This document shows positions 8,418-44,811 of a stretch of DNA of 64,000 nucleotides, in pieces. Source of the DNA: Pseudomonadota bacterium. GTDB taxonomy: Bacteria > Pseudomonadota > Gammaproteobacteria > Competibacterales > Competibacteraceae. Where the stretch lies: assembly GCA_018240295.1 (NCBI GenBank), contig JAFEGB010000326.1, positions 94-64,093 on the forward strand. The letters are read 5' to 3'. The translations under genes were made by a program, and so were the position numbers. Under the pieces are notes generated by a model, which was given only the letters and a program-made list of their open reading frames with translations, had not been told where the DNA came from and ran no database searches. Positions within the stretch are counted from its first letter, which is position 1; each line of letters starts with the position of its first letter.

Positions 8418-8422
8418 TCGCC

Positions 8423-12231: not shown

Positions 12232-12241
12232 GTGATCACAA
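12230..12241. promoter_or_regulatory. Second copy of the ATGTGATCACA palindrome (gntR/puuA divergent spacer)
   Basis: 11 of 12 identical to the 7522-7533 palindrome. Lies 38 nt upstream of the alternative GntR start and 69 nt upstream of the puuA ATG at 12310. Confidence 0.55.
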
Positions 12242-12309
12242 TCGGCCGGCAGTCTTCGCGAACACCCGAACGGCGTCAAGCGATGCCCCTGCCCCCGAGG
12301 AATCCTCCG

Positions 12310-18703: not shown

Positions 18704-19002
18704 GGGGAGGGTCCGTTCGGGCAGCGGCGGAGGCCCGGCATGCTCGTGCCGCCTGCGGGGAGCCGTCGCGTGACATGGTGTCGCAGGCGAGGCGTGCGCA
18801 GGCTTGCCGCGGGGTGGCCGATGCACAATCCGCGGTGCCGCAAAACCCTTGCACCGGCCGCTACTTGTCCGCAATCCGGCCGCATGGCTGCCGGCGATTG
18901 GTCCTTGCCGTCCGTCGCCTGCGACCGATGGTCGCAGGCGCTGCCGGCGGGCAGTGGGCGATGCCGACAATGGCGGTTCCCTCGTCTGCCGGAGTCGCGC
19001 CG

Positions 19003-19584: not shown

Positions 19585-19616
19585 CGGATGTTCCGTTTGC
19601 CTCCTGCCAGAAGCGC

Positions 19617-22691: not shown

Positions 22692-22765
22692 TGGAGGCTA
22701 GGGTCGGAATCGAACCGGCGTCCACGGCTTTGCAGGCCGCTGCATGACCACTCTGCCACCTAGCC
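22692..22765 (-). tRNA. tRNA-Cys (GCA)
   Basis: Reverse complement GGCTAGGTGGCAGAGTGGTCATGCAGCGGCCTGCAAAGCCGTGGACGCCGGTTCGATTCCGACCCTAGCCTCCA. It shows a 7-bp acceptor stem, anticodon loop CTGCAAA, GTTCGATTC T-loop, U73 discriminator and an encoded CCA. Confidence 0.95.
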
Positions 22766-22854: not shown

Positions 22855-22930
<76 letters not shown>

Positions 22931-27107: not shown

Positions 27108-29906
27108 TCAGCGGGGCAGGGCGGTGAGCAGTTGCCGGGCTTCCCGGGCGCCGTCGAAGCCGGTGCCGGTCGCCAGCGCCTGTTCGAGCGGCCGGCGCGC
27201 TTCGGCCGGGCGGCCGAGGCGGTGCAGCGTATAGCCGAGGTGCCAGAGCAGTTCCGGGTTGAGCGGGTCGCGCGCCAGCGCCGCCTGCAACTGCTGCAGA
27301 CCCTCCGCCACCTGACCCTGCTGCACCAGAATCCAGCCCAGCGTATCGAGCACGGCCGGGTGACCGGGGGCGGCGGCCAGCGCGCGCCGGGCCGTGGCCA
27401 GCGCGCGGACATCGCGGGTGCGCAGGTACAGCAGCGCGAGGTTGTTGAGGATCATCGCGTCGCCGGGGCGGGCGGCGGCGAGGGCTTCGTACAGGCCGAG
27501 CGCCTTCTGCCACTCGCCGGCCTGCGGCCAGGCGATCGCCAGTGCCGCACGCGCGTCCGGATCGGCCGGATGCTGCCCTGCCCAGGCTTCGAGCGCCGGC
27601 AGGCCGCGGGCCGGCGCGCCGGCGGCGGCGTGGGCACGCCAGATCGCGACTGCATAGGCGCTGCGCGGATGGCGGGCATGGCCGGCCTCGTAGACGCCGG
27701 CCGCCTCGCCCGCCTGTCCGCGTGCCATCAGGATCTCGCCGAGCAGTCCCCAGGCATCGGCCGGCGGTTCGGGCTGCGCGAGCAGGGTGCGGGCCGTGGC
27801 TTCGGCCGCGGCCACCTGCCCGGCCGAGACCTGGGCTTCGGCCAGCGCCTTCAGCGTGTCCGGCTGTCCGGGGTCGATGCGCCGCGCGCGTTCGAGCGTG
27901 TCAACGGCATCCTGCGCCGCACCGGACAGCAGTTGGTGGCGGGCGGCGCGCAGCAGCCGCGGCAGGTTCTCGCCGGCGGCCTCGCCGAGCTGGCGGAAGC
28001 TCTGGCGGGCCGCCGCAGTCTGCTGCAGCGCGAGCTGGCTCATGCCGAGGGCGGCGAGCGCATCGAAACTGCCGGGGTCGATCGCGACCGCTTCGCTCGC
28101 GACCGTCTGGGCGAGCAGCGGCTCGCGGTGCTCCAGCCGGTAGCCGGCCAGGGCCAGGCGCGGCTCCAGCCGGCGCGGATCGAGCGTGCGCGCCTGTTCC
28201 CAGGCGCGCACGGCCTCGTCCGTGCGACCGATGCCGAGCAGCAGCCGGCCGAGATCGGTGCGCAGGCCGGCGTCGCGCGGATTGGCGCTGATCAGCTGTT
28301 CGAGGCGGCGGATGCCGTCGGCCGGGCGGCCCTCGACAGCGTCGAGCCGGGCGAGATTGACCGCGGCCATGAGCAGCCCCGGCGCGAGCTGCAACGCGCG
28401 TTCGAAGTCGGCCCGGGCCCCGGCGGTATCGCCGAGCGCGAGTCTTGCGCCGCCGCGCAGGTGCAGCACGACGGCATGATCCGGGGCGCGCACCGCGACG
28501 GCATCGAGCGTGCGCAGCGCCTCGGCCGGCCGGCCGGCGCCGAGCTGCAGGCTGGCGAGCAGCAGGCCGTCGCGGGCTTCGCCGGATTGCGCCCAGGCTG
28601 CGGACAGCGCGGCGAGTGCCGCATCGCCCTGACCGCTCTGCAGGCGGGCCTGGCCGAGCTGCGCGAACAGGGCCGGCTGCTGGCCGCCGAGTTCGATCAG
28701 CCGCTCCAGCAGCGCGGCCGCTGTCGCATGCTGTCCGAGCTGGGTATGGGCATCGGCGAGCAGGGTCAGCAGGCGTACGTCACTGACGGCATGCGGATCG
28801 TCCGGCAGCGGCTGCAGCAGTTCCAGCGCCTGGCGGGGATCGCCGAGGCGCAGCAGCACCGCGGCGAGCAGCCGGCGTGCAGTCTCGTCACCCGGCATGC
28901 GCTCCAGATACTGCGTCAGGTCGCCGCGGGCCTTTTCGGACAGGCCGAGCGCCTCGTGCACGGTGCCGGACAATTTCAGCAGCGAGGGCGAGCGCAGCAG
29001 CGTCTCGCGCGGGATGGCCTTCAGCAGCAGCGAGGCATCGGTCAGGCGTGCGCGTGCCGTTTCCGGGTCCTGGCGCGCGCGGGCCAGTTCGGCGGCGAGC
29101 AGCAGCGTGCGCACATCGGCCGGATTCTGCCGGCGCAGGCGATCGAGCACCGGCTGCGCCTCGTCGGCACGCCCGAGCGCGATCAGGGCGCTGACGCGCG
29201 CGGCGCGCGCCGGCAGGCAGAGTTCATCCAGTTTCAGGGCGGTGTCGGCGGCGGCGAGGGCCTCGGTGGCATGCCCGGCAGCGAGTTCGGCGGCGGCGAG
29301 CGCGGTCCAGGCTTCGGTCGAGCGCGGATCGAGGCCGGTGGCGCGCTGGGCGGCGCTGCGCGCGAGCGCGGCATCCTGCTGCTGCAGGGCCAGCATCGAC
29401 AGGCCGATGTCACCGTCCGGCGCCTGCGGTGCGGCCTCGCGGGCAGCGGTGAACGACAGGGCAGCCTCTTCCATCAGGCCGAGTTCGAGTCGCGCCTCAC
29501 CGCGCAGGCGCAGCATGCGCGCGCGCGCGGCGCCGGTATGGCGGTACGGATCGAAGCCGTCGAGGACGGCCTGGAACTCTCCCTGGCGCAGCTTCAGGTA
29601 CATGCGCAGCGGATCGATGTCGGCGCGCTCGGCTCCGAGGCGCAGCGCCCCCTGCAGGGTGCTTTCCGCGAGTTCGAACCGCCCCTGGCGCAGATAGGTG
29701 TGACCGAGCGCAACCTGGGCCGGAGCGAGGTCCGGGCGCTGCTGCAAGGCATTCTTCAGATGGATTTCGGCCCCGGCGTAATCGTTGCGGTCGAGGCTCT
29801 GCAGGCCGGCGTGCAGTTCTTCGGTGGCGGTGCCGGCGACGGCCGGCGGACCGCCCAAGGCGAAGACCAGCGCCAGCGCCAGCGGCTGGAGGCGGGAGCG
29901 GTTCAT
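27108..29906 (-). CDS. prsT: Large TPR-repeat protein, PrsT-like (PEP-CTERM system associated)
   Basis: Track ORF 27108..29939(-) trimmed to the ATG at 29906 (AGGAAA Shine-Dalgarno). Signal peptide MNRSRLQPLALALVFALGGPPAVAG. About 930 aa of consecutive TPR-like A/L/G-rich repeats. Flanked by PEP-CTERM genes. Confidence 0.7.
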   Translation of the reverse strand: MNRSRLQPLALALVFALGGPPAVAGTATEELHAGLQSLDRNDYAGAEIHLKNALQQRPDLAPAQVALGHTYLRQGRFELAESTLQGALRLGAERADIDPLRMYLKLRQGEFQAVLDGFDPYRHTGAARARMLRLRGEARLELGLMEEAALSFTAAREAAPQAPDGDIGLSMLALQQQDAALARSAAQRATGLDPRSTEAWTALAAAELAAGHATEALAAADTALKLDELCLPARAARVSALIALGRADEAQPVLDRLRRQNPADVRTLLLAAELARARQDPETARARLTDASLLLKAIPRETLLRSPSLLKLSGTVHEALGLSEKARGDLTQYLERMPGDETARRLLAAVLLRLGDPRQALELLQPLPDDPHAVSDVRLLTLLADAHTQLGQHATAAALLERLIELGGQQPALFAQLGQARLQSGQGDAALAALSAAWAQSGEARDGLLLASLQLGAGRPAEALRTLDAVAVRAPDHAVVLHLRGGARLALGDTAGARADFERALQLAPGLLMAAVNLARLDAVEGRPADGIRRLEQLISANPRDAGLRTDLGRLLLGIGRTDEAVRAWEQARTLDPRRLEPRLALAGYRLEHREPLLAQTVASEAVAIDPGSFDALAALGMSQLALQQTAAARQSFRQLGEAAGENLPRLLRAARHQLLSGAAQDAVDTLERARRIDPGQPDTLKALAEAQVSAGQVAAAEATARTLLAQPEPPADAWGLLGEILMARGQAGEAAGVYEAGHARHPRSAYAVAIWRAHAAAGAPARGLPALEAWAGQHPADPDARAALAIAWPQAGEWQKALGLYEALAAARPGDAMILNNLALLYLRTRDVRALATARRALAAAPGHPAVLDTLGWILVQQGQVAEGLQQLQAALARDPLNPELLWHLGYTLHRLGRPAEARRPLEQALATGTGFDGAREARQLLTALPR

Positions 29907-29996
29907 CGGCAGTTTCCTGGCACGGATGGCAGCGGACACCCCCTGGCCCGCAAGGCGGGCGAGGGGGGCGGGCAGCGACGGGGAGCGCGCAGGCGC

Positions 29997-31082
29997 TCAG
30001 CGACGCCGGCGGCGCATCAGCCAGGGCAGCGTCAGTCCGAGCAGCGCGAGGCTGGCCGGTTCCGGGACGGAGGTCACGCTGTTGGAGCTGGCGATGAAGA
30101 TCTGCTCGTAACCGTTGTTCAGGGCCGACATGCGGAAGTCGAACTGCATCACGTCGTAGAGACCATTGGCGATCGCGGTGTTGAGTTCGGGCGAATACAG
30201 CATGTAGGCGGCCTGGTTGGCGCCGAGGTTGTGGTTGAAGGTCTGGTCGGCATCGGGCACGCAGCCCGGGATCTGGTAGCCGAAGATGCTGCGGCAGGTG
30301 TCGGAACTCGGGATCGTGACCTGACCGCCGGAGAGGATGTAGTAGAAGTCGGTCGTGGTGATGCTGGCCGGAGCGGCGTTGAGGGCCGGGGTGTCCCCGG
30401 CGCCGTGCGTGTAGCCCAGCGTCTCGGCGCCGGTCAGCGAAGGATTGCCGCCGGCACCGCGGTTGTTGGTCAGGTCGAAGACCAGATCCGGCGCGACGCC
30501 GGCATCGTCCTTCAGCGTGAACTGACCCCAGGCCATCAGGTTCTGGTTGGTGGCCGCGCCGGAATTGACCTGGTTGTTGTTGAAGAAGAACAGCAGGTCA
30601 CCGCCGTTCAGGAAGCTGGTCAGCGCCGAGACGCGCGCATCCCAGGTGTTTTCGCCGTCACCGACGAACTCGGTGGTGTGATTCGCCGGATTGCCGTTGT
30701 CACCCGGGTCATCGACACCGCCCGGAGCCGAGGTCGTGGTCTGGAACTGGTCAACGCCGGTGTTGTTCGGCGTCTGGTAGGCATTGTCGACGCCGCTGTA
30801 ATTCGTATTGACCGGCTGGCCGTTCGCGCCGGTGCCGATGACGGTCAGATCGGAAATCTGTCCGGGGCCGGAGGCGATGTAGAACGGATTGCCGGGGCCG
30901 ACGCCACCTCCGAATTCGCGCGCATAACGATATGCGAGGATCGGCAGCGAGTACGAATAGAAGTCGCCGTACTGGAAGGCGTTGAACTGCGGGGTCGGCA
31001 GGAAGAAGGCGGCCTGGGTCGTCGGAACGCCGCCGATCAGACAGGCCGCTCCGATTGAGGCTGCCAGCATGCGCTGGTTCAT
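29997..31082 (-). CDS. PEP-CTERM-anchored secreted protein (exosortase substrate)
   Basis: Track ORF 29997..31091(-). The ATG at 31082 follows GAGGTGA; GTG 31091 is the alternative. Signal peptide MNQRMLAASIGAACLIGGVPTTQA. C-terminal VPEPASLALLGLTLPWLMRRRRR. Confidence 0.85.
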   Translation of the reverse strand: MNQRMLAASIGAACLIGGVPTTQAAFFLPTPQFNAFQYGDFYSYSLPILAYRYAREFGGGVGPGNPFYIASGPGQISDLTVIGTGANGQPVNTNYSGVDNAYQTPNNTGVDQFQTTTSAPGGVDDPGDNGNPANHTTEFVGDGENTWDARVSALTSFLNGGDLLFFFNNNQVNSGAATNQNLMAWGQFTLKDDAGVAPDLVFDLTNNRGAGGNPSLTGAETLGYTHGAGDTPALNAAPASITTTDFYYILSGGQVTIPSSDTCRSIFGYQIPGCVPDADQTFNHNLGANQAAYMLYSPELNTAIANGLYDVMQFDFRMSALNNGYEQIFIASSNSVTSVPEPASLALLGLTLPWLMRRRRR

Positions 31083-31231
31083 GTTGCTCACCTCATGTGC
31101 ATGGGTTTTGCGCAGATTTCTTATGTGCTGCGATACATGGCTTTCACCTCCGGTGTGTGAATCGGCTGGCCGGCCCTGACCTGGCGCACGCGGGTTCTCG
31201 TGCTGCGCCAGTGATCCCGAATGTTAAATAC

Positions 31232-31247
31232 AGCAAGTTATGTGCCG
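31232..31247 (-). promoter_or_regulatory. Candidate sigma-54 promoter (cGGCAC-N5-TTGCT) upstream of the second PEP-CTERM gene
   Basis: The minus strand reads CGGCACATAACTTGCT with canonical -24/-12 spacing, about 150 nt upstream of the ATG at 31082. Confidence 0.5.
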
Positions 31248-32459: not shown

Positions 32460-33104
32460 TCAGGGATCGTCGGCGCTCGGCACCCAGCCGCCGAGATCCT
32501 TCCAGCGGTTGACGATGTTGCAGAAGAGTTCCGCCGTGCGCTCGGCGTCGTAGACGGCCGAGTGCGCCTCGCGCGCATCCCAGGCGATGCCGGCGGCCTG
32601 CGCGGCACGGGCGAGCACGGTCTGGCCGTAGGCGAGACCGGCGAGCGTCACGGTGTCGAAGGTCGAGAACGGGTGGAAGGGATTGCGCTTCACGTCGCAG
32701 CGCTCGGCCGCCGCGTTCAGGAAGCCGAGATCGAACGCGGGGTTGTGCGCGACCATGATCGCGCGCGTGCAGCCGGTCTCGCGCACCTCGCGGCGCACCT
32801 CGCGCAGCACGTTGCCGAGTGCTTCGGCCTCGGGCAGCGCCAGCCGGAACGGGTGGAAGGGGTCGATGCCGTTGACCTTCAGCGAGGCCGGATCGAGGTT
32901 GGCGCCCGCAAACGGCTCGACGTGATGCGCGATCGTGCGTGCCGGATACAGGCGGCCGTCGCTGCCGAGGCGCAGCAGCACCGCGGCGATTTCGAGCAGC
33001 GCATCGGTGCGGGCATTGAAGCCGCCGGTCTCGATATCGACGACGACGGGCAGAAAACCACGGAAGCGGAAGGCGATCGGGGACTTGCGGACGGAATCGT
33101 TCAT
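32460..33104 (-). CDS. rnt: Ribonuclease T
   Basis: C-terminal 214 codons of track ORF 32460..38183(-), from the ATG at 33104 ([30 protein letters not shown]). DEDDh exonuclease motifs (DIETGG, AHNPAFD, HSAVYDA). Confidence 0.9.
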
Positions 33105-33305
33105 GGCCCGAGCATACCCGAGGCGCCTGCGCTTGGGCATCGCGCCCGCCGCGGTGCGCCGCCGGTCACAAGGCGCTACAGTCGCGCCTGCCTTCCCGTC
33201 CCAGACCCCGCACCGAACGGAGTGTTGCCGATGCCGTACGCGTCCGCCGAACAGGATGTCCTGCCGCTGCGTCCGGCCGACGGCAGCGGCAGCGGGGCCT
33301 GAGCG

Positions 33306-36300
33306 ATGCTGCGCCGCCGCTTTTTCCGCAATCCCGTCTTCGCGAATCTGGCCCTGCTGCTCGCGCTGCTCGCCGGTGTGCTGTCCTGGTGGCAGATGCC
33401 GCGCGAGCAGACCGCACGACCGTCCGCGGCGGCCGTCGAGATCGTCACGGCCGCACCGGGACTCGCGACCGCCGAGATCGAGACCCGCGTCACCGCGGTG
33501 CTCGAAGCCGCGATCAAGCCGATCGCCGATCTCGACTTCATCGCCAGCACCAGCCGCGTCGGCGAATCGCGCCTGACCGTGCGCCTGCGGGCGGTCAGCG
33601 AGGCGACCTTCGAGCGCCGGCTGAACGAGCTGCGCTGGATCGTGCAGCACGTCGAGCGACAGCTGCCGTCGCTGGCCGGCCGTCCGGAGATCGCGAGCGT
33701 GCATGGCGCCGGCGTGCTGCCGAGCGCCGACGTGCTGGTGCTGGCCCGGGCCCCCGATGCGCCGGCGCCGTACGCGGCGGCCGAGCGGCTGGCGCAGTCC
33801 TTCGAGCGGCTGATGGATGTCGAGCGCGTCGAGCGCTACGGCACGCGCGCCACGCGCGTCGAGATCCGCTTCGATCCGGAGCGTGTCGCCCGTCACGGCC
33901 TGACGCCGGCGCGGCTGGCCGAACTGGTCGGGGCGCAGCTGCGCGAGCAGGCGGTCGGTCGCGTCGACTTCGACGAGCGGCCGATGCAGCTGCTGGTCGA
34001 AGGCGCCGACCTGCAGCCCGAGCGCCTCGCGCAGCTGCCGGTTCCGGGTGTCCGCGGCCTGCAGCCGCTCGCGGCGCTGGCCGACATCGAGCGCGGCCCC
34101 GAACCGGCGACGCGCGCGGTGCTGGCCGACGGCCGGCCGGCGGTGCTGCTGTCGGTGTACCGCAAGTCCGACGCCAACGCGCTCGACTTGTCGGCGGCAC
34201 TCGGCGAGCAGGCGGCGCGCTTCGCGGACAGCGATGCCGAGGCCGCCGCGATCGAGCTGCGCGTGCTCGATGCGCGCAGCACCGACACCCGTCGCGCGCT
34301 GCAGGCTTACGAGCGCGGCGCGCTGCCGGCGCTCGCCGCCGCGCTGCTGGTGTTCGCGATCGCCTTCGGCTGGCGCCTGGCGATGCTCGTCGCCTGCGTG
34401 GTGCCGGCGGCCGTCGGTCTGGCGCTGGCGCCGTGGGGATTCTCGGGCGGCGTGCTGACGCCGGTGATGCTGACTGGCGTGCTCGCCGGTTTCGTGCTGC
34501 TGATCGATGCGGCAGTCGCAGTCGGCGAGCGCCTGCAGCACCGGCTGCTGCGCGGTGCCGCGGCGCTCGATGCCGCCTACGGTGCCTGGCGCGAGGCCGG
34601 ACTGCCGCTGATGGTCGCGACGCTGGTGTTCCTGCTGGCGATGCTGCTGCCGATGTGGCTGCCGGAAGGCAGCGGGCCGGCCGGCGCGCTGGCGGCGCGG
34701 GTCATGACCGGCATGCTGGTCGCCGGCATCGCCTACGCGGTGCTGCTGCTGCCCTCGCACGCGGTGGTCACGCGCATCCGCCTGCCGCGCCGCCATCCGG
34801 TGCAGGCCCGGCGCGAATGGCTGGCCTGGCGGCTGCGCCACGCCTACCGGCGGCTGCTGAACTGGACGCTGCGCCGGCCGCTGGTGCCGGGGCTGGTGCT
34901 GGTGCTGCTGCTGCTCGGCGCGCTGGTCGCCCTCGGCAGCGGCCGCGTCGGCGTCGAGTTCGCCGAACGCGGGCAGCTGCGCTCCTTCTACGTGAACCTC
35001 GAACTGTCGCCGGGTGCGAAGCTGGAGGACACCCTCGCCGCCGGGCGTGAGGTCGAGCGCATCGTGCGCGAGCAGCTGCCGGCCGATGCGCTGGCCGAGG
35101 TCGTGATCAGCGCCGGCCTGCGCCGCAGCGAGCGCGAACTGCTGACCGGCGAGCGCCACGGTCAGGTGCTGGTCGGCCTGCGCAGCGGCGACCGCATCCG
35201 CGACGCGCTGACCGTCGAGCAGGGGATCACGCGCGTCAAGCCGCGACTCGCCTTCGTCGGCGGCGTCGACAACCTGAGCGTGCAGGCCGTCGACGACGGC
35301 CGGCCGGTGGCGCGGCCGCTCAGCGTCACCGTGCGCGGCGATGATCCGGCCGAGGTGCGCCGCGCTGCCGACCGCGTCGTCGACATCCTGCGCAGCCTGA
35401 TCGGCGTCACCGATGTGGTCGACGACGAGGATCAGGCCGAGGCCGCGGAGCTGCGCCTGGTGCTGAAACCGGGCGCGCTGCTGCGCGCCGGGCTGTCGGC
35501 GCCGCAGCTGCTGCGCGAGCTGCGCCTGCTCGGCGAGGGCGAGACCATCGCGCAGCTGCGCGAGCAGGGCCGCAACGTCGACGTGCTGCTGCGCGGCAAG
35601 GCTGCGCCCGAACCGTTCTTCGACATCGAGGAATTCCTGGCGCGGCCGGTGCGCCTGCCCGATGGCCGCAGCGCCCCGCTCGGCGAGTTCGCCAGCGCCG
35701 AGCCGGCCAGCGGCCGCAGCGTCGTGCGCCACCAGAACCTGCGCCGTGCGATCAGCATCGAGGCCGACGTCGATCAGGCGCGCGTCAACACCTTCGCGCT
35801 GAACCGCGTGGTCGTCGCCGAATGGGAGCGCACGGCCGCTGCCGGTCTGCCCGGCGTCGAGCTGGTCATCGGCGGCGCCTTCGGCAGCGTCGCCGGTCAC
35901 CTCGGTGCGCTGGTCAGCCTGTTCGCGCTCGGCAGCGGACTCGGTTATCTGGTGCTCGCGACGCGCGCGCACAGCTACCGCCAGCCGCTGGTGATCTTCG
36001 CGGCCGTGCCGTTCGCGGCGCTGGCCTTCGTCGTCGGGCTGGCCGTCAGCGGCCAGCCGGTCGGTCCGTACACCGGCTTTGCCGGCACGGCGCTGCTCGG
36101 CCTGTCGGTGCAGTCGACGCTGCTGCTGGTGTCGGCCGTGCAGCGGCTGCTGCCGATCGAGGGCTCGGTCGCCAGAGCCGTGGCGCTCGCCGCGGCCGAC
36201 CGGGCGCTGCCGGTGCTGGTCTCGGCCCTGGCAAGCGTCGCCGGCCTCGCGGTATTCGCGCTCGGCGTGCCGGTGGCGGCCCCGGCGTGGATGGCGCTCG

Positions 36301-38162
36301 CCGGGGCGCTGATCGGCGGCATTCCGGTCATCGCGCTGTGCGTGCTGCTGGTGCTGCCGGCGATCTGCCTGTACGTGCTGCGCGCGCCGGTGTCGGCGGT
36401 CACGGCGATCAACGTCGTCGACGCCGAACCGGGCGGCGGCGGCTGGCGCGAGCGCATGCGCCGCGGCCGGCGGCATGCGGCGATCGTCGCGCTGAACGAA
36501 TCCGAGCTGAACAGCGCCGAGCCCGAGCTGCGCGCCCGCCACGAGGCCGGTCTCGACGCGCTGAAGGTCGGCGAGTGGCTGCAGGCGCTGCGCCTGTTCG
36601 AGGACGCCGCCAAGCGTCACCCCGAGGCCGTGCAGCTGCAGTTCGGCGCCACGCAGGCGCTGCTGCAGTACCTGTTCGAGAACGAATGGGACGAGGGCTA
36701 TCACGCCCGTGCCGGCCGGCATCTGGCGCGCGCGCGCCAGCTCGCTTCCGGCGATCCGCGCCTGCGTCCGCTGGAACGGGCGCTGGCCGAACTCGAAGCC
36801 CGGCATGTGCCGGTGGCCGGGGAGGGCACAAGCAGCCAGCCCAGGGTCGGCATGCTGCGGCTGTCGGGCACGGTCGGCCGGCCGTGGCGGCCGGCGAGCG
36901 TGGCGCGCGGGCAGCGGGCGCCCGATCGCGGCACCGACCTGCCGGCCGGCCTGCATGATCTGGCGCTGGCGCTGCGCAACCTCGTGCGCCAGCGCAAGCG
37001 CACGGCCGCCGCGCTCGGCGCGATCGGCTTCGGCGCCGTGGCGCTGATCCTCGCCGGCGGCTTCATCGAATGGGTGCTGTGGGCGACGCGCGAATCGGCC
37101 GTCTACGGGCAGCTCGGCCATGTGCAGGTCGTGCGCCAGGATTTCTTCGTGCGCGGCACGGCCGATCCGCGCGGCTTCCTGATTCCGGGCGATGCGCCGC
37201 CGGCCGGCCTGCGCGAGCTGCCGCACGTGCGCGCCGTGACGCCGCGGCTGAGCTTCAGCGGTCTGGCGAGCACCGGCGAGACCACGGTGCCGTACCTCGG
37301 TCAGGGCGTGGTGCCCGAGGACGAGGCGCCGATCAGCATCGATTACCGCATCGTCAGCGGCAAGGGCCTGACCACCAGCGACGCGCGCGAGGTCATCGTC
37401 GGCACCGGACTCGCGGCGACGCTCGGCGTCAAGCCCGGCCAGAAGCTGATCCTGATGAGCAACTCCGGCAGCGGCGCGTTCACGCCGGTCGAGCTGAAGG
37501 TGCGCGGGCTGTTCTCGACCTCGAACAAGGCGCTGAACGATGTCGCCCTGCGCGTGCCGCTGAAGACCGCACAGGACCTGCTGCAGGTCGATGGCGTGCA
37601 CATCTGGGTGGTGCTGCTCGATCGCACCGAATCGACGGCCGCCGTGCTGCCGCAGCTGCGCGCCCTGCTGCCGGCTGGCCTGCAGGCGGTGCCGTGGTCG
37701 GACCTCGCCGACTTCTACAACAAGACCAGCGAGCTGTTCCAGCGCCAGATGTTCGTGCTGCGGCTGATGATCGCGGTGATCATCCTGCTCAGCATCTCGA
37801 ACTCGCTGATGATGAACGTCATGGAGCGCACCGGCGAGATCGGCACGCTGTGCGCGCTCGGCACGCGCCGGCGCTCGATCCTGAAGATCTTCAGCCTCGA
37901 AGCCCTCGCGCTCGGCCTGCTCGGCGCGGCGACCGGAACGGCGCTCGGCGTGACCATCGCCTCGGTGGCCTCGGCGGTCGGCATCCCGATGCCGCCGGCC
38001 CCGGGCATGGACAAGGGCTTCGTCGCCGAGATCCTGGTCACGCCGGCGCTGGCGGGCTCGACCTTCGGGCTGGCCGTCATCGCGACCTTCGTCTCCGGCC
38101 TGTATCCGGCCTGGAAGGCCTCGCGGCTCGTCATCGTCGACGCGCTGCGGCACAACCGCTGA
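33306..38162 (+). CDS. Fusion protein: AcrB-type RND permease (about aa 1-1022) + about 190-aa helical linker + MacB/LolC-type FtsX ABC permease (about aa 1215-1618)
   Basis: Single uninterrupted 1618-codon ORF. The N-terminus [24 protein letters not shown] and a 12-TM two-lobe layout are typical of the AcrB family. The C-terminal module starts [31 protein letters not shown] (FtsX TM1). It continues with a ~230-aa periplasmic domain and then three TMs with [20 protein letters not shown] and [11 protein letters not shown] at third codon positions is maintained through the linker. Confidence 0.75.
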
Positions 38163-38175
38163 AGCGGAGCGCGCC

Positions 38176-39387
38176 ATGCTCAAGTTCGCCTACCGCAACC
38201 TGACCCGCCACCGCGGCCGCACGCTGCTGACGCTCGGGGCGATCGCCTTCGGGGTCGTGAGCCTGGTGCTGTCGGCCGGCTTCGTCGACGACATCTTCGT
38301 GCGCCTGCGCGAGAACACCGTGCAGAGCGGCCTCGGCCACCTGCAGGTCGCGCGCGAGCACTACTTCGACCTGCGCAACCGCCAGCCCTATGCCTACATG
38401 ATCGAAAACCCCGGAGCCGTCGTCGCCGCCGCGAAGAAGCTGCCGACGGTGCGCGAGGCGATGATGCGCGTGAACCTCACCGGCACGCTCAGCAACGGCA
38501 GCGGCGAGCTGCCGGTGGTCGCCGAGGGCGGCGAGCCGGAAAAGGAGGTGGCGGTCGGCGGCTTCGTGACGCTGGTCGACGGCCGGCGCCTCACCGGCGG
38601 CGATCAGAACGTCGTCGAGCTCGGCGAGGGGCTGGCGCGGGCGCTCGGCGTTGCGCCGGGGGCGTTCGTGACGCTGCTGACCGCCACGCCCGAGGGCGCG
38701 ATCAACACCGTCGAGCTGAAGGTGGTCGGCATCTTCCGCAGCGTGTCGATCGACTACGACGCGCGTGCCGCACGCCTGCCGCTCGCGACGGCGCAGACGC
38801 TGCTGAACACGAAGTCCGTGCATACCGTCGTTGTCGCGCTCGAGAACACCGCCTTCACGCAGACCGCCGCCGGGCAGCTGCGCAAGGCCCTCGATGGCCA
38901 GCCGCTCGCCGTGTACACCTGGGACGAACTCGCCGATTTCTACCGCAAGGCGGTGGATCTGTACCGCACGCAGTTCGGCGTGCTGCAGGCGATCATCCTG
39001 ATCATGGTGGCGCTGTCGGTGTCGAACAGCATCAACATCTCGATCTTCGAGCGCACGGCCGAGGTCGGCACGCTGCTCGCGCTCGGCAACCGCCGCCGGC
39101 AGGTGCTGCAGTTGCTGGTGATGGAGAGCGCGATCTCGGGACTGGTCGGGGGGCTGGCCGGCGCGGCGCTCGGCATCGGGCTGGCGCTCGGCATCAGCTC
39201 GATCGGCATTCCGATGCCACCGCCACCGAACTCCAGCCAGGGCTATCTCGCGGTCGTGCGCATCGTGCCGGAGCAGGTGGCGGTGGCGCTGGTCATCGGC
39301 GTCGTTGCGACCGTGCTGGCCTCGGTGCTGCCGGCGTGGCGGGTGTCGCGGCTGCCGGTCGTCGAAGCGCTGCGCCGGGCGCAATGA
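38176..39387 (+). CDS. MacB/LolE-type FtsX-family ABC transporter permease
   Basis: 403 aa, 13 nt after the fusion ORF, with a GGAG Shine-Dalgarno. [32 protein letters not shown] (TM1), a periplasmic domain, and three C-terminal TMs with [19 protein letters not shown] and LPAWRVSRL. Paralogous to the C-terminal module of the fusion. Confidence 0.9.
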
Positions 39388-39422
39388 GCCCGGTGCGGCC
39401 GCAGGGTCCGGACCCGCGGGCT

Positions 39423-40202
39423 TCAGTCGATGCCCTGCGTGACGCGCGTCAGGTAGTCCGGGTGGAACAGCTTGTTCGGCAGCTCGCGCGGCTTCATCGC
39501 GGAGTAATCGAGCACGGAGCGGTCACCGCGCTTGACCGCATCCTCCATGACCAGCTGGGTCGGACGCACGGTGTTGTCGAGCTTTGCGTAGTTCAGGTAC
39601 TGGGCGGTCTTCAGCAGCCGGCCGGACAGCGCGTAGAACTCGGCCTTCAGCGGCTGGTTGCCGCTGCGCTCGACCCACAGCAGCACGCGGTTGTAGGTGA
39701 CGCTGCCGTCGATGGCGGTCAGCTCCAGCACTGCGTACTTGCGCTTCTGGATGGTCTCGTCGCGCAGCACGCGGGCGTTGTAGTCGCCCGAGAAGTTCGC
39801 GCGTGCCAGATCGCCGTTGGCGACCTGGCCGGTCAGGCGCTGCGACAGCGGCAGGCGCACCGGCTGCGACAGGCGCGGCGAGTACACCCACAGGTCGCGC
39901 CCGCGCATCAGCAGCACCTGGCCGCGCTCCGAGGCCGGGGCGGTAGTGATGACGAGGGTGTTTTCGTTACCCTTCGACAGGATCTGGTAATCGCGGACCT
40001 CGGTTTCGCCTCCGGGCGTGGTCGAGCTGATCCGCACGTTCACCTCGAAGTCGCTGCGCGGAAACCGGACCTGATCGGCGGCCTCCAGCATCGCGAGGGC
40101 TTCGAGGTCCACTTCCTGTGCCCGCGCCGCCGGCATCGCCAGGGTGGCGGCGCACAGCAGCAGCAGGGAAGGCAGACGCAGTACGGTCGCACGCATCGGC
40201 AT
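39423..40202 (-). CDS. Periplasmic LolA-like outer-membrane lipoprotein-sorting family protein
   Basis: Track ORF 39423..40307(-) trimmed to ATG 40202 (or 40196). Signal peptide MPMRATVLRLPSLLLLCAATLAMPAARA|QE with no canonical lipobox. The body resembles LolA-like/DUF4367-type half-barrels (DFEVNVRISS, LLMRGRDLWVYSP, GDLARANFSGDY, YNRVLLWVE). Confidence 0.7.
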   Translation of the reverse strand: MPMRATVLRLPSLLLLCAATLAMPAARAQEVDLEALAMLEAADQVRFPRSDFEVNVRISSTTPGGETEVRDYQILSKGNENTLVITTAPASERGQVLLMRGRDLWVYSPRLSQPVRLPLSQRLTGQVANGDLARANFSGDYNARVLRDETIQKRKYAVLELTAIDGSVTYNRVLLWVERSGNQPLKAEFYALSGRLLKTAQYLNYAKLDNTVRPTQLVMEDAVKRGDRSVLDYSAMKPRELPNKLFHPDYLTRVTQGID

Positions 40203-40290
40203 ACTCTCCAGGCATCGGGTACACAACGGGTACGCCCGGTCGCAGGGCCGGGCAGGGACACGGCGCGAGCCGCGGGATGAAGAACGGGTC

Positions 40291-40977
40291 ATGAGCATAG
40301 TACGCATCGAAAACGTCTCGAAACGCTACCGCCTCGGCGAGCAGGACGTGACGGCGCTGCACGGCGTCAGCCTGCGCGTCGAGCCGGGCGAGTTCGTGGC
40401 GCTGGCCGGACCCTCCGGCAGCGGCAAGACGACGCTGCTGAACATGATCGGCTGCATCGACACGCCGAGTTCCGGGCGCGTCATCGTCGATGGCCATGAC
40501 GTGACCGGCCGCGATCCGGACCAGCTCGCCGAACTGCGCGCCCGCACGCTCGGCTTCATCTTCCAGACCTTCAACCTGCTGCCGGTGCTGTCGGCCGAGG
40601 AAAACGTCGAGTACCCGCTGATCAACATCCAGCACATCCCCCGGGCCGAGCGCCGCCAGCGCGTCGCGTACTTCCTCGACATGGTCGGACTCGCGCGGTT
40701 CGCACGCCATCGCCCGAACCAGCTTTCGGGCGGCCAGCGCCAGCGCGTCGCGATCGCCCGGGCGCTGGCGACCAAGCCGAAGATCGTGCTTGCCGACGAG
40801 CCGACCGCGAACCTCGATCACCAGAGCGGCGACGGTATCCTGCAGCTGATGAAGCACATCAACGAGCAGTCCGGCACCACCTTCATCTTTTCGACGCACG
40901 ACGCCCGCGTGATGGCGATGGCCAGCCGGCTCGTGCGCATCAGTGACGGCGCCATCGTCGGCGAGGAGACCCGATGA
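40291..40977 (+). CDS. ABC transporter ATP-binding protein (LolD/MacB type)
   Basis: Track ORF 40144..40977(+) trimmed to the ATG at 40291 (MSIVRIENVSKRY). Walker A GPSGSGKTT, Q-loop FQTFNLLP, signature LSGGQRQR, Walker B IVLADEPT, H-loop STHD. Confidence 0.95.
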   Translation: MSIVRIENVSKRYRLGEQDVTALHGVSLRVEPGEFVALAGPSGSGKTTLLNMIGCIDTPSSGRVIVDGHDVTGRDPDQLAELRARTLGFIFQTFNLLPVLSAEENVEYPLINIQHIPRAERRQRVAYFLDMVGLARFARHRPNQLSGGQRQRVAIARALATKPKIVLADEPTANLDHQSGDGILQLMKHINEQSGTTFIFSTHDARVMAMASRLVRISDGAIVGEETR

Positions 40978-42275
40978 CGAACCATCCGAACCGGTCCGGC
41001 CGCATCGCCCTGGGCATCGCACTGCTGGCGGTCACGCCGGCGGCTGCCGCGCAGCAGGACGTGAAGCTCAGCGGCTACCTGTCGAACGAGACCGCGTACA
41101 CCTTCGGCGGCGAGAATCACTGGTCGAAGTCCCGCAACACGCTGAACCTGGCCGCCACCGGCAGCTTCAGCGAGTCGATCTCGTGGAAGGCGAGCGGCTG
41201 GCTGCGCTGGGACCCGGTTGTCCAGCACTCGGATTTCTATCCGGACAAGGTGCAGGACGACCGCGGTTTCGAGGGGCTGGTGCGCGAGACCTTCCTCGAT
41301 GTGAGCCTCGGGGACTGGGACCTGCGCCTCGGGCGCCAGAACATCGTCTGGGGCGAGATGGTCGGCCTGTTCTTCGCCGACGTGGTTTCGGCGCGCGACA
41401 TGCGCGAGTTCGTGCTCGCCGACTTCGAGCAGCTGCGCATCCCGCAGTGGGCGGCGCGCGCCGAGTACTTCAAGGACGACTTCCACGCCGAGCTCGTGTG
41501 GATCCCGTACCTGACCTACGACAACATCGGCGAGCCCGGCGACGACTTCTACCCGTATCCGCCGGCCTTCCCGGGGCTTGGCTACCGCATCCTCGATGAA
41601 AAGAAACCGCGCGGCGGTGACAGCGACGATGCCGCCGGCGTGCGCCTCGGCTGGATCGTCGATGGCTGGGACATCAACGGTTACTACTACCGCAGCACCG
41701 ACGTGCAGCCGGCCTTCCAGCGCAGCTTCGGCCTGGTCGGCGGCGTGCCGACGCTGACCTACACGCCGACGCACAACCGCATCCAGCAGTGGGGCCTGAC
41801 CGTCGGCAAGGACATCGGCGACGGGCTGGTGTTCAAGGCCGAGGCGATCTACACGATGGGCCGGCGCTACGACGTGCTGCGCCTGAGCGATGCCGACGGT
41901 CTGGTGCGCAAGGACACGCTCGATTACGTGCTCGGTCTCGACTGGACGCCGGACGCCAGCAACCGCCTGAACCTGCAGTTCTTCCAGCGCTTCTATCAGG
42001 ACCACGACCCGGACATGGTGCCGGAGAGCGTCGAGAGCGGTGTCAGCCTGTTCTATTCGACCAAGGTCTGGGGCGACCGGCTGGAGCCGGAAATCACCTT
42101 GATCGAGAGCCTCAACCGCGGCGACTGGCTGCTGCGGCCGCGGCTGACCTGGAACGTCAGCGCCGACCTGAAGGCCAGCTTCGGCGCCGACATCCTGAAC
42201 GGCCCGCCGGATGCGCTGTTCGGCCGCTTCACCAACGGCGACCGCGTCTACGCCGAGGTCCGCTACGACTTCTGA
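40974..42275 (+). CDS. DUF1302-family predicted outer-membrane beta-barrel protein
   Basis: 433 aa. Its ATG overlaps the ATPase stop (ATGA). Signal peptide ...AVTPAAAA|QQ. DUF1302-like N-terminal region (KLSGYLSNETAYTF, DLRLGRQNIVWGE, LRIPQWAARAEYF). Ends ...YAEVRYDF, a terminal Phe typical of OMPs. Confidence 0.75.
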   Translation: MTNHPNRSGRIALGIALLAVTPAAAAQQDVKLSGYLSNETAYTFGGENHWSKSRNTLNLAATGSFSESISWKASGWLRWDPVVQHSDFYPDKVQDDRGFEGLVRETFLDVSLGDWDLRLGRQNIVWGEMVGLFFADVVSARDMREFVLADFEQLRIPQWAARAEYFKDDFHAELVWIPYLTYDNIGEPGDDFYPYPPAFPGLGYRILDEKKPRGGDSDDAAGVRLGWIVDGWDINGYYYRSTDVQPAFQRSFGLVGGVPTLTYTPTHNRIQQWGLTVGKDIGDGLVFKAEAIYTMGRRYDVLRLSDADGLVRKDTLDYVLGLDWTPDASNRLNLQFFQRFYQDHDPDMVPESVESGVSLFYSTKVWGDRLEPEITLIESLNRGDWLLRPRLTWNVSADLKASFGADILNGPPDALFGRFTNGDRVYAEVRYDF

Positions 42276-44296
42276 GGGCTGGCGTCCGGGCTGCCGCCGC
42301 CGGTCATCAGCCGCGCGAGCGGCAGGCGCGTCGAGCGCGATACCGGCACCGGGCCGTAGCCGAGGCGGCCGAAGTACACGGCGCGCGCTGCGGTGTCGGC
42401 CCCGACCAGCGCATCGAGCTGGCGGGCGAGCGTGCGGGCGTTGTCGATTGAAGCCTGCTTTTTCGTGAACTCGATGCCGTCACGGATGTAGCCGGAGAAG
42501 ATCAGCGGCGTCATCTCCGGCTGGAACTGCAGGCCGAGGCGGGTCGCGGTCAGCCAGAAGCGCTGCATTGCGGCGCCGGCGGCGAGATAGTCGGCGAGCG
42601 TCTGCGGTGCCTGTTCGGCAATGATCAGGAAATGTGCGGCGCAGCCGAGCGCCGGTGCGAAGTCGAGCTGCAGCCGCGGCAGCCAGGTGCCGGCGAACCA
42701 GCGGTTCAGGAAGTCGACGCGCTCCCAGCTCTTCATCGCCCAGCGCATCAGCGCGAGCCCGACCGGATCGAGCCCGACCGCGGCCCCGGGCAGCCGGTCC
42801 TCGCTGTACTGCACGCCGAACTCGATGATGTCGCGGTGCGTCGGGTAGGCCTCGGGCGTCGTCAGCCGGATGTGGGCGTTGCGAAACAGCAGCTTCGCGA
42901 CATCGAGGCGCTGATCCCCTTCCAGCCAGCGCAGCGAGTAACCGGGACCGAGCGCCTGCAGGAAGGCCGCCTTCACGGCGTCCGTGAGCGGCCGGCGCGA
43001 CAGCGGCCGGCGCTGCGTGCAGCGTGCGCGGATCGCGGTTTCCAGCGGATGGCGCACGGCCGCCGCTGCCGGCGTGAACTGCAGGCGGAACATCGGCGCA
43101 AACGCCGGCGTCGTGTCCCCGACCCCGGGCAGCGTTTCGATGTCGAGCGCAAGCCCCGCGCCCGGGGCGGCGATGCGCGCGGTTTCCAGCAGCGCACCGA
43201 GAGCGAGCTGGCTCGGCCGGCCGCGCAGGTCGTAGATCACGTGATCGCGCGTGTCGCAGCCGTGCACGATCACGGTCAGCGGGTCGACGGCCTCGAAGCG
43301 CCACGGCTGGGTGTTGTCGCCGCTCGGGGCCCAGCTCGCCAGTTCGAGCACGCGTGCGACGCGCGGGTCCAGCCCGGCCGGTGCCGCAGGCGCGGCACGC
43401 GCCGGGGCCGGCAGGCTGCGGGCGCGGCGCAGCAGCGTGCGCATGATCGCCAGCGTCAGGCGGTTCAGCGGGTGGCGGTTGCCGCCCGGGCGCCAGGTGC
43501 GCGACAGCCGGTTGCGGTAGGCATCGAAGTGCAGGCCCCACGGCGCGGCGCGCACCGGGCCGCGGCCGAGCAGCAGCTTCAGCGATTCGGTCACGAGCAC
43601 GCCGGCGGCGAGTTCGCAGGCCATCGGCGTCGACGGTCCGCGCTTCTCGACGAAGTTGATCGCCGAGCGATCGACCAGATAGCCCTGCTGCAGCATCGTC
43701 GGCGACAGCCCGACCAGGAAGCGCGCGTACTGTTCCTCCTCGGGTTGGCCCTCGACCTGGAAGTAGTCCTCGAAGCTCATGCGCCCGGGCAGGAAGGTCA
43801 GCACCGCCGTGCCCATGCCGAGCGGCGCGGCCGTGATCGCCGGGATGCCGCGGGCGTGGGCGGCTGCGAACACCTTGCGCCGCACCGGCAGCACGAAGAA
43901 ATCCAGCGCATCGACGTACAGGTCGACGCCGTCGAAGAAGGCATCGAGGTTGTCGTCGGTGACGCCGTCCGCAAAGCGCCGGATATCGAGTTCCGGATTG
44001 ATCGCGAGGGCGGCCTCGGCCATCACGTCGAGCTTCGGCCGATCGAGCGTCGCCATCGTCGCGCCGGCCTGACGGTTGAAGTTGTGCAGCTCGAAGCGGT
44101 CGAAGTCGGCGAGGTGGAAGGCGCCGACGCCGAGCCGCGCCAGCGTCAGCAGATGCACGCCGCCGACGCCGCCGAGTCCGGCGACAGCCAGCCGCCGGCC
44201 GCGCAGCCAGGCCTGCTCGGTCGGTGTCAGCCAGCCGATGTTGCGGCTGAAGGCAGTGGCGTAATCGAAGGACTGCGAGACGTGCTGCGGGGACAT
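42263..44296 (-). CDS. ThiF/E1-like adenylyltransferase fused to a nitroreductase-like domain (Rv1355c/MoeY-type architecture)
   Basis: Track ORF 42263..44317(-) trimmed to the ATG at 44296 (AAGGAGA Shine-Dalgarno). N-terminal Rossmann motif VAGLGGVGGV and FDRFELHNFNRQ (ThiF/MoeB-like). The C-terminal half contains ASWAPSGDNTQPWRF (nitroreductase fold). No CxxC zinc motifs and no rhodanese domain. Confidence 0.8.
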   Translation of the reverse strand: MSPQHVSQSFDYATAFSRNIGWLTPTEQAWLRGRRLAVAGLGGVGGVHLLTLARLGVGAFHLADFDRFELHNFNRQAGATMATLDRPKLDVMAEAALAINPELDIRRFADGVTDDNLDAFFDGVDLYVDALDFFVLPVRRKVFAAAHARGIPAITAAPLGMGTAVLTFLPGRMSFEDYFQVEGQPEEEQYARFLVGLSPTMLQQGYLVDRSAINFVEKRGPSTPMACELAAGVLVTESLKLLLGRGPVRAAPWGLHFDAYRNRLSRTWRPGGNRHPLNRLTLAIMRTLLRRARSLPAPARAAPAAPAGLDPRVARVLELASWAPSGDNTQPWRFEAVDPLTVIVHGCDTRDHVIYDLRGRPSQLALGALLETARIAAPGAGLALDIETLPGVGDTTPAFAPMFRLQFTPAAAAVRHPLETAIRARCTQRRPLSRRPLTDAVKAAFLQALGPGYSLRWLEGDQRLDVAKLLFRNAHIRLTTPEAYPTHRDIIEFGVQYSEDRLPGAAVGLDPVGLALMRWAMKSWERVDFLNRWFAGTWLPRLQLDFAPALGCAAHFLIIAEQAPQTLADYLAAGAAMQRFWLTATRLGLQFQPEMTPLIFSGYIRDGIEFTKKQASIDNARTLARQLDALVGADTAARAVYFGRLGYGPVPVSRSTRLPLARLMTGGGSPDASPQKS

Positions 44297-44364
44297 CGGC
44301 TCTCCTTGCGGCGGCACGGGGGTGGCCGCCGGCGGTGTCCGGGCGGGGGGAAGGCCCTGCAGGC

Positions 44365-44811
44365 TCAGCCGGTCGTGTTCTTCGCGACCCAGCGGCTGCC
44401 GTCGGGCAGGGTTTCGTGCTTCCAGAACGGCGCGCGCGACTTCAGCGCCTCCATGATCCAGCGACAGGCGTCGAAGGCCGCGCCGCGGTGGGCGCTCCAG
44501 ACCGCGACCAGCACGATCGGATCATTCGGCAGCAGCTCGCCGACGCGGTGGATCACCAGCGCATCGAGCAGCGACCAGCGCTCGACCGCCTCTTCGGCCA
44601 GACGCGCGAGTTCCCGCTCGGTCATGCCCGGATAGTGCTCCAGACGCATGCCGCGCACGTCATCGCCTTCGTTGTGATCGCGCATCGTGCCGATGAAGCT
44701 CGCCGTCGCGCCGTAGCGACCGGCGAGCCGCGCATCGAGCGCCTGCTGGTGGGCGGCGAGTTCGGCCAGCGGTTCGAAGCCGTGTTCGCGGATCTCGATG
44801 CGCACGGCCAT
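44365..44811 (-). CDS. moaE: Molybdopterin synthase catalytic subunit
   Basis: 148 aa. Motifs: FIGTMRDHNEG, VIHRVGEL, IVLVAVWSAHRGAAF, EALKSRAPFWKHE. Confidence 0.9.
   Translation of the reverse strand: MAVRIEIREHGFEPLAELAAHQQALDARLAGRYGATASFIGTMRDHNEGDDVRGMRLEHYPGMTERELARLAEEAVERWSLLDALVIHRVGELLPNDPIVLVAVWSAHRGAAFDACRWIMEALKSRAPFWKHETLPDGSRWVAKNTTG

Follow-up and report, generated by a model that had tools for sequence, protein, structure and literature searches.

The gene cluster

The stretch of DNA analysed here, called the window below, is a 64-kb piece of contig JAFEGB010000326.1 from a Plasticicumulans species, a gammaproteobacterium with about 70% G+C. It holds a cluster of genes for a resistance-nodulation-division (RND) transporter fused to an FtsX-type permease of the ATP-binding cassette (ABC) class, a second FtsX permease, a secreted LolA-like protein, a separate ABC ATPase and an outer-membrane barrel of the DUF1302 family (Table 1). 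An earlier reading of this DNA, made from the letters alone and called the sequence-only reading below, had described five open reading frames (ORFs) as one cluster at 33306-42275. All five are present and profile searches confirm their families, while the edge of the cluster has to be moved, since the ThiF-nitroreductase gene at 42263-44317 on the minus strand belongs inside it. Smaller details of that reading hold as well: the signal peptide of the LolA-like protein ends ARA|QE, and a conserved lipobox Cys is absent; an ATGA overlap at 40974-40977 couples the ATPase gene to the barrel gene; and the barrel ends in Phe, its C-terminus reading ...VRYDF. The immediate flanks in the window are pyrD and the gene of RNase T upstream, and the ThiF-nitroreductase gene followed by MoaE downstream.

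The sequence-only reading had also reported neither an HlyD-type adaptor nor a TolC-type duct. Indeed, profile searches detect no HlyD/membrane fusion protein (MFP) and no OEP/TolC family in any substantial ORF of the 64-kb window, and clustering of every neighbour ORF reveals no MFP or TolC/outer-membrane factor (OMF) family among the conserved neighbours of the 80 related loci described below. A 247-codon ORF just 5' of the fusion (32562-33302, plus strand) was considered as a hidden MFP and rejected, for it has no family match and the true gene there is that of RNase T on the opposite strand. As for regulatory signals, no sigma-70 or sigma-54 promoter and no terminator rises above shuffled background inside the cluster, including 40203-40290, and no riboswitch or known regulatory RNA was found in the window. 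A Shine-Dalgarno motif, GGAG, lies 7 nt 5' of the ATG of FtsX2.

Table 1. Coordinates in the window of the genes, modules and neighbouring features of the cluster
Feature	Coordinates	Strand	Description
RND module of fusion, residues 1-1025	33306..36380	+	HAE1-like, divergent; Pfam ACR_tran
Cytoplasmic linker of fusion, about residues 1026-1215	36381..36950	+	Predicted small all-helical TPR-like domain, disordered tethers on both sides
FtsX1 module of fusion	36951..38162	+	Type VII ABC permease, 4 transmembrane helices, periplasmic domain of about 228 aa
FtsX2 permease	38176..39387	+	LolE/LolC-like partner; Pfam MacB_PCD + FtsX
Secreted LolA-like carrier (putative)	39423..40202	-	PF17131 / TP_0789-like; ortholog family of N. 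europaea NE2245
Divergent intergenic region, 88 bp	40203..40290	.	Between the LolA-like and ATPase genes; promoters presumed
ABC ATPase	40291..40977	+	LolD/DevA/MacB type; Pfam ABC_tran
Outer-membrane beta-barrel (predicted)	40974..42275	+	DUF1302 family; translationally coupled to the ATPase gene
ThiF-nitroreductase fusion gene	42263..44317	-	ThiF is an E1-like adenylyltransferase; conserved neighbour of the module
PrsT	27111..29939	-	XrtA exosortase system; context, not shown as a machine part
PEP-CTERM protein	29997..31091	-	XrtA exosortase system; context, not shown as a machine part

The RND::FtsX fusion

The fusion is genuine, being a single intact ORF in three Plasticicumulans species. 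In the window it spans 33306-38162 on the plus strand and encodes 1618 aa, in which Pfam recognises ACR_tran at residues 6-1021 (283 bits) and FtsX at residues 1487-1608 (62 bits). A single ORF of this kind is found in four diverged genomes, namely that of the window, that of a relative with 80% identity (P0002), and the isolate genomes of P. acidivorans (L085, 1623 aa) and P. lactativorans DSM 25287 (L005 12006-16817, minus strand, 1603 aa), and the Plasticicumulans loci repeat the gene order of the window at identities of 42-81%. Between the window and the 80% relative, the ratio of nonsynonymous to synonymous substitution rates (dN/dS) comes to 0.31 in the RND module, 0.33-0.41 in the linker and 0.36 in FtsX1; purifying selection therefore acts on all three modules. 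With one ORF in four diverged genomes, two of them isolates, and with dN/dS below 1, a sequencing or assembly artefact or a missed stop codon is rejected. Hydropathy shows the transmembrane (TM) set of the RND module, then about 210 non-membrane residues, and then four FtsX helices at 1236-1254, 1483-1501, 1533-1551 and 1576-1594; such a layout makes topological sense, since both the C-terminus of the RND and the N-terminus of FtsX lie in the cytoplasm.

The architecture is rare. A search of 5.8 billion proteins yields three full-length RND+FtsX proteins, the window's own, one with 80% identity and one with 52%, and the gene order is identical around all three. An exhaustive HMMER scan of 1.84 billion cluster representatives, with a sequence spanning the RND/FtsX junction as the query, yields two junction-spanning proteins, the window's own and a relative with 46% identity. 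We found no description of an RND-FtsX single-polypeptide fusion in the literature searched. Public records name the protein 'efflux RND transporter permease subunit' or 'multidrug efflux pump subunit AcrB', and P. lactativorans is annotated inconsistently, with the 1603-aa fusion WP_132538311.1 as 'AcrB' and in addition a RefSeq 416-aa FtsX-only model, WP_243662527.1.

Among solved proteins, the RND module is best matched by the HAE1 pumps MexK and TriC, with 147 bits in phmmer and a full-length alignment (residues 15-1020 in that with MexK). It shares with them the 12-TM architecture, which the ACR_tran domain covers over its full length, the TM4 Asp, the TM11 Arg and an alignment over about 1000 residues, but differs in its low identity, in the change of the TM10 Lys/Arg to Gln, in a cytoplasmic helical tail, in its fusion to an ABC permease, and in having no partner, since no cognate MFP or OMF adjoins any Plasticicumulans fusion. 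Every NCBIfam RND model stays far below its cut-off for this module, RND_permease_2 for example reaching 230 against 1250.

The linker contains no TM helices according to hydropathy. A single-sequence AlphaFold2 (AF2) model of low confidence, with an overall predicted local distance difference test score (pLDDT) of 55, predicts helices at about fusion residues 1065-1167 (pLDDT 67-79) with disordered flanks. Several RND fragments from metagenomes that are not fused (P0383, P0402, P0406, P0414, P0416 and P0484) end in this helical tail as well, and P0383 among them shows faint TPR matches; because these unfused fragments carry it, the cytoplasmic helical tail predates the fusion. In a further locus, L087 (7-2592), the gene after an unfused RND with this tail encodes a GT1 glycosyltransferase, which is 50-57% identical to the GT1 proteins encoded beside FtsX1 elsewhere (L031 13308-14237; L081 17326-18255). 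Among the short contigs that carry such unfused genes, L087 alone gave a link to the module, by way of this GT1 gene.

The permeases and the ATPase

FtsX1 and FtsX2 are colinear paralogs with 40% identity, as with LolC and LolE. The NCBIfam lolCE model aligns over fusion residues 1302-1616, and free-standing FtsX1 genes, found in 60 of the 80 loci, share 42-52% identity with the FtsX1 module; FtsX2, with MacB_PCD at 58 bits and FtsX at 63 bits in Pfam, is likewise present in 60. The ATPase is a separate 228-aa protein (ABC_tran, 124 bits) which scores 220.6 bits with the NCBIfam model of DevA, 220.2 with that of LolD and 218.9 with that of MacB, the DevA and LolD scores lying below their cut-offs. 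On the whole, the FtsX domain in both permeases, the MacB_PCD domain in FtsX2, the TM layout and the ATPase subfamily place the set in the type VII (MacB/FtsX) ABC superfamily. Type VII ABC transporters, such as MacB, LolCDE and FtsEX, are outward-acting extruders or mechanotransmitters without a transmembrane substrate channel. The proteins are not the housekeeping LolCDE orthologs, because the ATPase stays at 220.2 bits under the LolD equivalog cut-off of 307.75 (TIGR02211), while FtsX1 and FtsX2 reach 101.6 and 103.1 bits against the LolC/LolE cut-off of 362.45 (TIGR02212).

The LolA-like protein and the barrel

The LolA-like protein matches the Pfam family PF17131 LolA_like with 158 bits against a cut-off of 30, and the structure 3BUU of the Protein Data Bank (PDB), 'LolA superfamily protein NE2245' from Nitrosomonas europaea, with E = 5.6e-85; tblastn aligns it to the N. 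europaea locus at 55% identity. It therefore stays in the LolA superfamily, as the sequence-only reading had it, and it has 4798 homologs at E <= 1e-5. It is not a LolA ortholog: the solved LolA 2W7Q is matched with E = 0.5 and the sole NCBIfam LolA-type match has 15.5 bits against a cut-off of 100.

The assignment of the barrel is retained as well. It matches DUF1302 (PF06980) with 42.9 bits against a cut-off of 23.2, plus Porin_4, and the name of its homologs at NCBI is 'DUF1302 family protein'. An AF2 model built from 41 homologs is a confident beta-barrel of about 20 strands, with a pLDDT of 85.4 and a predicted template modelling score (pTM) of 0.81. As far as sequence and model go, the gathering score, the signal peptide, the predicted barrel fold and the C-terminal Phe thus all point to a DUF1302 barrel. 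A close structural match in the PDB was sought with Foldseek, and nothing beyond generic porin similarity was obtained (TM-scores 0.45-0.57), which agrees with the published statement that a solved structure is lacking for DUF1302 (PMC13499233).

Two further features of the barrel family were seen. Its most conserved stretch, residues 118-159 (RQ.IVWGEMVGLFFADVVSA.DMR.F...RIPQW), falls on the sole low-confidence internal region of the AF2 model, 131-149, and this loop may be a candidate gate, a mobile lumen loop or a docking site. In addition, many barrel homologs of 540-630 aa (e.g. P0250, P0255 and P0258) carry an N-terminal SPOR domain (PF05036), which binds peptidoglycan, while the Plasticicumulans proteins of about 433 aa have none.

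Conservation of the module across genomes

A scan of one genome per species shows at least 580 genomes with a close relative of the LolA-like protein. From these, 80 loci were retained with flanks of at most 10 kb either way; in 38 of them both flanks reach the full 10 kb. The 80 loci belong mostly to Betaproteobacteria, including Nitrosomonas, Nitrosospira, Sulfuriferula, Dechloromonas, Accumulibacter, Propionivibrio and Burkholderiales, with a few Gammaproteobacteria.

Overall, the adjacency of the genes is strongly kept. The ATPase is present in all of the 38 full-flank loci, the DUF1302 barrel in 35 and the two FtsX permeases in 32, while an RND is found in one (P. lactativorans) and an MFP in none. 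Among all 80 loci the ATPase is present in 77, and in 71 of these 77, which hold both genes, the LolA-like gene adjoins the ATPase gene and points away from it; in 64 of the 80 the barrel gene stands next to the ATPase gene and runs in its direction. With the gene order of the window repeated in the Plasticicumulans loci and the RND-less module found again in 80 of the 80 loci fetched, the arrangement is far beyond chance. The comparison thus shows that a module of two FtsX permeases, LolA-like protein, ATPase and barrel is widespread, being found without any RND in hundreds of genomes, mainly from Betaproteobacteria, and that the RND is an addition specific to Plasticicumulans. The RND engine to which the sequence-only reading had drawn attention is therefore present, but not as a core part of the machine. 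We found no description of this NE2245-type module in the literature searched.

Exosortase and lipid genes around the module

Links of the module to the XrtA/PEP-CTERM exosortase system and to N-acyl amino acid synthases, which the sequence-only reading did not contain, appear in its neighbourhood. A neighbouring gene encodes a 'PEP-CTERM/exosortase system-associated acyltransferase' (TIGR03694), that is, a synthase of N-acyl amino acids, with 291 bits against a cut-off of 112. This synthase is found within 10 kb in 34 of the 80 loci, and in 23 it lies at most 400 bp from the LolA-like gene. Such synthases were linked to exosortase in 2011, as cited in PMC4897644 and PMC11072679. A GT1 glycosyltransferase is present in 15 of the 80 loci, in 11 of these at most 700 bp from FtsX1, and other neighbours from the XrtA system are PrsT, the extracellular polysaccharide (EPS) export protein TIGR03027 and the chain-length determinant TIGR03007. 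At least one XrtA marker (the synthase, PrsT, TIGR03027 or TIGR03007) lies within 10 kb in 29 of the 38 full-flank loci.

In the window itself, PrsT and a PEP-CTERM protein are encoded 2-6 kb upstream of the cluster. PrsT is a 943-aa TPR protein (TIGR02917, 483.6 bits against a cut-off of 312.2), and the organism therefore has an exosortase A system. The PEP-CTERM protein, of 364 aa, has no Pfam or NCBIfam match, and its C-terminus is a textbook PEP-CTERM sorting signal, VPEPASLALLGLTLPWLMRRRRR, directly followed by the stop. About 140 bp upstream of its gene lies a sigma-54-like -24/-12 box, CGGCACATAACTTGCT, at 31232-31247 on the minus strand with one mismatch to the consensus, the sole good sigma-54-like box found.

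The other conserved neighbour is the ThiF-nitroreductase gene, with Pfam ThiF and Nitroreductase domains and a match of 444 bits to NCBIfam PRK08223, which is named 'hypothetical' (also PRK14851). It lies within 10 kb in 31 of the 80 loci, there without MoaE, and in every Plasticicumulans locus; in Nitrosospira (L029, L045) it stands directly 3' of the barrel gene on the same strand. In the window, the ThiF-nitroreductase gene and then MoaE occupy 42263-44811 on the minus strand, and P. acidivorans (L085 5222-7914) adds a ThiS/MoaD-like gene.

Farther away in the window, a putrescine-utilisation set at 4470-13686 includes an aminotransferase, a PuuC-like aldehyde dehydrogenase, a PuuD-like hydrolase and a glutamine-synthetase-like gene. 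For this last gene, the ORF taken from stop to stop (10969-13686, 905 codons) holds about 460 codons upstream of the glutamine-synthetase-like region. At 16661-21248 a TonB-dependent receptor gene on the minus strand adjoins a CopC-CopD fusion gene (19395-21248), and the minus strand also carries two tRNA genes, at 22695-22765 and 22858-22930.

Comparison with known systems

One of the closest known architectures is that of LolCDE-LolA-LolB of E. coli, with two paralogous 4-TM FtsX permeases, a separate ATPase, a soluble carrier of the LolA fold, an outer-membrane acceptor and no MFP or TolC. Apart from the model scores given above, the present set is unlike it in that the carrier belongs to PF17131 and not to the LolA family, that the acceptor would be a DUF1302 barrel of about 20 strands and not the lipoprotein LolB, and that an RND is fused to one permease.

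MacAB-TolC and DevBCA-HgdD share the permease fold (FtsX with a MacB-type periplasmic domain) and the ATPase subfamily with the cluster, and DevBCA exports heterocyst glycolipids, showing that the type VII class can export glycolipids. Unlike the present module, these systems depend on an MFP (MacA or DevB) and on a duct of the TolC type, neither of which stands beside the module in the 80 loci. In MacB, moreover, the ATPase precedes the permease within one protein, joined to its N-terminus, while here the ATPase is separate and the N-terminus of FtsX1 bears the RND.

Other precedents combine a DUF1302 barrel and a LolA-superfamily protein with an MFP/TolC-free inner-membrane transporter of hydrophobic compounds, namely AmeABCD of Castellaniella defragrans (PMC6394551) and PP_0765-0766 with PP_2018-2019 of P. 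putida, the latter from the cofitness of Pseudomonas DUF1302, DUF1329 and RND genes (bioRxiv 10.1101/2020.07.04.188060; see also PMC13499233). The cluster differs from the AmeABCD type in that the engine here is a type VII ABC transporter, the LolA-like protein belongs to PF17131 and not to DUF1329, its match to 4Z48 reaching only E = 4.2e-7, and the RND is ACR_tran/HAE1-like, not HAE3, and confined to one genus; a BNR/COG4447 protein is absent from the cluster. Finally, BBJ23-BBJ29 of Borrelia also joins a MacB-like ABC transporter, a LolA-like protein and a barrel, and it too is known from prediction only (PMC13078400). Its barrel is an Omp85 where DUF1302 is found here, its permease is homodimeric, it has no RND and no exosortase context, and it is plasmid-borne.

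A proposed Lol-like shuttle and its alternatives

Based on these comparisons, we propose that the cluster forms a trans-envelope shuttle of the Lol kind which works without an MFP and carries an amphiphilic lipid connected with the exosortase/EPS system, the RND being a lineage-specific add-on; in this full form we give the proposal an even chance. The outward type VII ABC transporter, the carrier of the LolA fold, the dedicated barrel and the consistent absence of MFP and TolC together argue for a relay of the Lol type. The general view of the sequence-only reading, that of a Lol-like shuttle for a hydrophobic cargo rather than a classical efflux pump, is accordingly the best-supported one that we can draw from comparative genomics, and none of the refuting checks set out with it, all of which were carried out, spoke against it.

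In such a relay, FtsX1 and FtsX2 would pair as a heterodimer to give a type VII ABC permease, two copies of the LolD-like ATPase would supply its power, and this permease would extract an amphiphilic, lipid-like cargo at the periplasmic face of the inner membrane. The extracted cargo would be passed to the soluble LolA-like carrier, carried across the periplasm and delivered to the DUF1302 barrel, where it would enter the outer membrane or cross it. We infer the outward direction from type VII ABC transporters such as MacB and LolCDE. As suggested by the neighbouring genes, the cargo would most likely be a lipid product linked to the XrtA/PEP-CTERM exosortase-EPS system, with long-chain N-acyl amino acids or a glycosylated derivative as the leading candidates. 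In Plasticicumulans only, the RND module, tethered to the N-terminus of FtsX1, would probably gather or flip the same cargo at the inner membrane and feed it to the ABC extractor; alternatively it may be largely a structural passenger.

A number of observations weigh against this proposal, and several concern the RND module. We mapped its key residues through the MexK alignment together with a five-sequence alignment and numbered them by D407, D408, K940 and R971 of AcrB, which we take to be the proton-relay positions. The relay is incomplete, the window having D401, A402, Q936 and R966: the TM4 Asp (D407 of AcrB) is kept as D401 in the window and is Gly in P. lactativorans (L005), the equivalent of D408 is Ala, the TM10 Lys (K940) is replaced by Q, Q, H, H and N across the five aligned proteins, which include an unfused relative from Wenzhouxiangella, while the TM11 Arg (R971) is invariant as R966. 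Between species, the RND module shows 37-47% identity compared with 69-73% for FtsX1, that is, it diverges faster. Because of the incomplete relay and the faster divergence, the activity of the RND module is uncertain and it may not pump. The nearest unfused RND relatives, namely the Wenzhouxiangella gene (L002) and a gene with the helical tail (L089), have an MFP gene upstream, and HAE1 RNDs are trimeric while type VII ABC permeases are dimeric, which poses a problem of stoichiometry.

The context raises further objections. In the window, pyrD and rnt stand between the cluster and PrsT, and neither a gene for a synthase of N-acyl amino acids nor a GT1 gene is found there, therefore the clue to the cargo is borrowed from relatives. 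The shuttle leaves the conserved ThiF-nitroreductase neighbour unexplained, and in the literature searched we found no functional study of 3BUU or NE2245 and no experiment on any member of the module.

The residues just described bear most directly on a reading in which the RND is an inactive passenger or scaffold, or in which FtsX1 is also made from an internal start, so that the working machine of Plasticicumulans is the RND-less ABC module. The loss of the TM10 Lys in all members and of the TM4 Asp in P. lactativorans speaks for it, together with a divergence of the RND about twice as fast as that of FtsX1, and the RefSeq FtsX-only model would fit an internal start. However, a module of about 1000 codons has been kept open and in frame across species at such low identity, dN/dS in the closest pair is well below 1, the TM11 Arg and many Gly and Pro positions are invariant, and the five-sequence alignment contains no conserved Met or Val start codon at the RND/FtsX junction. 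We consider this reading unlikely.

It is also conceivable that the module traffics PEP-CTERM proteins themselves, in that XrtA would cleave the anchor and leave the protein attached to a lipid, which may come from an N-acyl amino acid, and the protein, lipidated at its C-terminus, would then take a dedicated Lol-type route to the surface. Archaeosortase substrates are lipid-modified at their C-terminus, which offers an analogy. The XrtA-system neighbours in the full-flank loci, the PrsT and PEP-CTERM genes near the cluster in the window, and the resemblance of permeases, ATPase and carrier to LolCDE/LolA, whose cargo is lipoprotein, would all suit it. Nevertheless, we found no demonstrated lipid attachment by a bacterial exosortase in the literature searched, the adjoining small-molecule synthase and GT1 fit a small lipid cargo at least equally well, and the LolA-like protein is not a LolA ortholog; we regard protein cargo as quite improbable.

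Conventional RND and/or MacB-like efflux of drugs, solvents or metabolites, with the MFP and TolC-type duct encoded elsewhere, would account for the HAE1-like character of the RND module with MexK and TriC as its best solved relatives, for the MFP genes beside its nearest unfused relatives, and for the public annotation as a multidrug efflux pump. It has a slim chance, for the window contains no MFP or OMF and neither occurs within 10 kb in any of the 80 genome loci or in the loci of Plasticicumulans, the module is everywhere without an RND outside one genus, a dedicated LolA-like carrier and barrel would be superfluous for a tripartite pump, and all pump-specific NCBIfam models score far under their cut-offs. 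Very improbable, too, is the uptake or handling of exogenous hydrophobic compounds (fatty esters, long-chain acids, hydrocarbons), with barrel and LolA-like protein bringing the substrate inwards, as type VII ABC transporters are generally known only as outward-acting from the inner membrane, the neighbours are biosynthetic or EPS genes and not catabolic ones, and the flanks in the window are housekeeping genes. The precedents for it are the uptake proposed for Pseudomonas DUF1302/DUF1329, where P. putida mutants show defects on Tween 20 and on butyl stearate (bioRxiv 10.1101/2020.07.04.188060), and the need for AmeB in growth on monoterpenes (PMC6394551).

Implications

An RND joined to a MacB/LolC-type ABC permease in one polypeptide is an architecture for which we found no report in the literature searched. 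If both halves work, two energy sources would be coupled to one transport path, and the assembly of a trimeric with a dimeric transporter would pose a puzzle of its own. Carried to its end, the shuttle reading would make the NE2245-type module the missing outer-membrane delivery arm of the XrtA/PEP-CTERM pathway, bringing to the surface a lipid or a lipid-anchored product that depends on exosortase and is made with the neighbouring N-acyl amino acid synthase, and would make RND::FtsX the first covalent union of a proton-motive-force engine and an ATP-driven type VII ABC engine on one cargo; this far-reaching version is speculative and we think it improbable.

Nitrifiers, polyphosphate accumulators and floc-formers of wastewater and soil commonly carry the module without the RND, and the crystal structure of its carrier, 3BUU, is years old. 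The tight linkage of the module to the synthase and to exosortase/EPS genes provides a concrete candidate route by which the lipids of that synthase, or exosortase products, may reach the outer membrane, on a PEP-CTERM question that dates to 2006.

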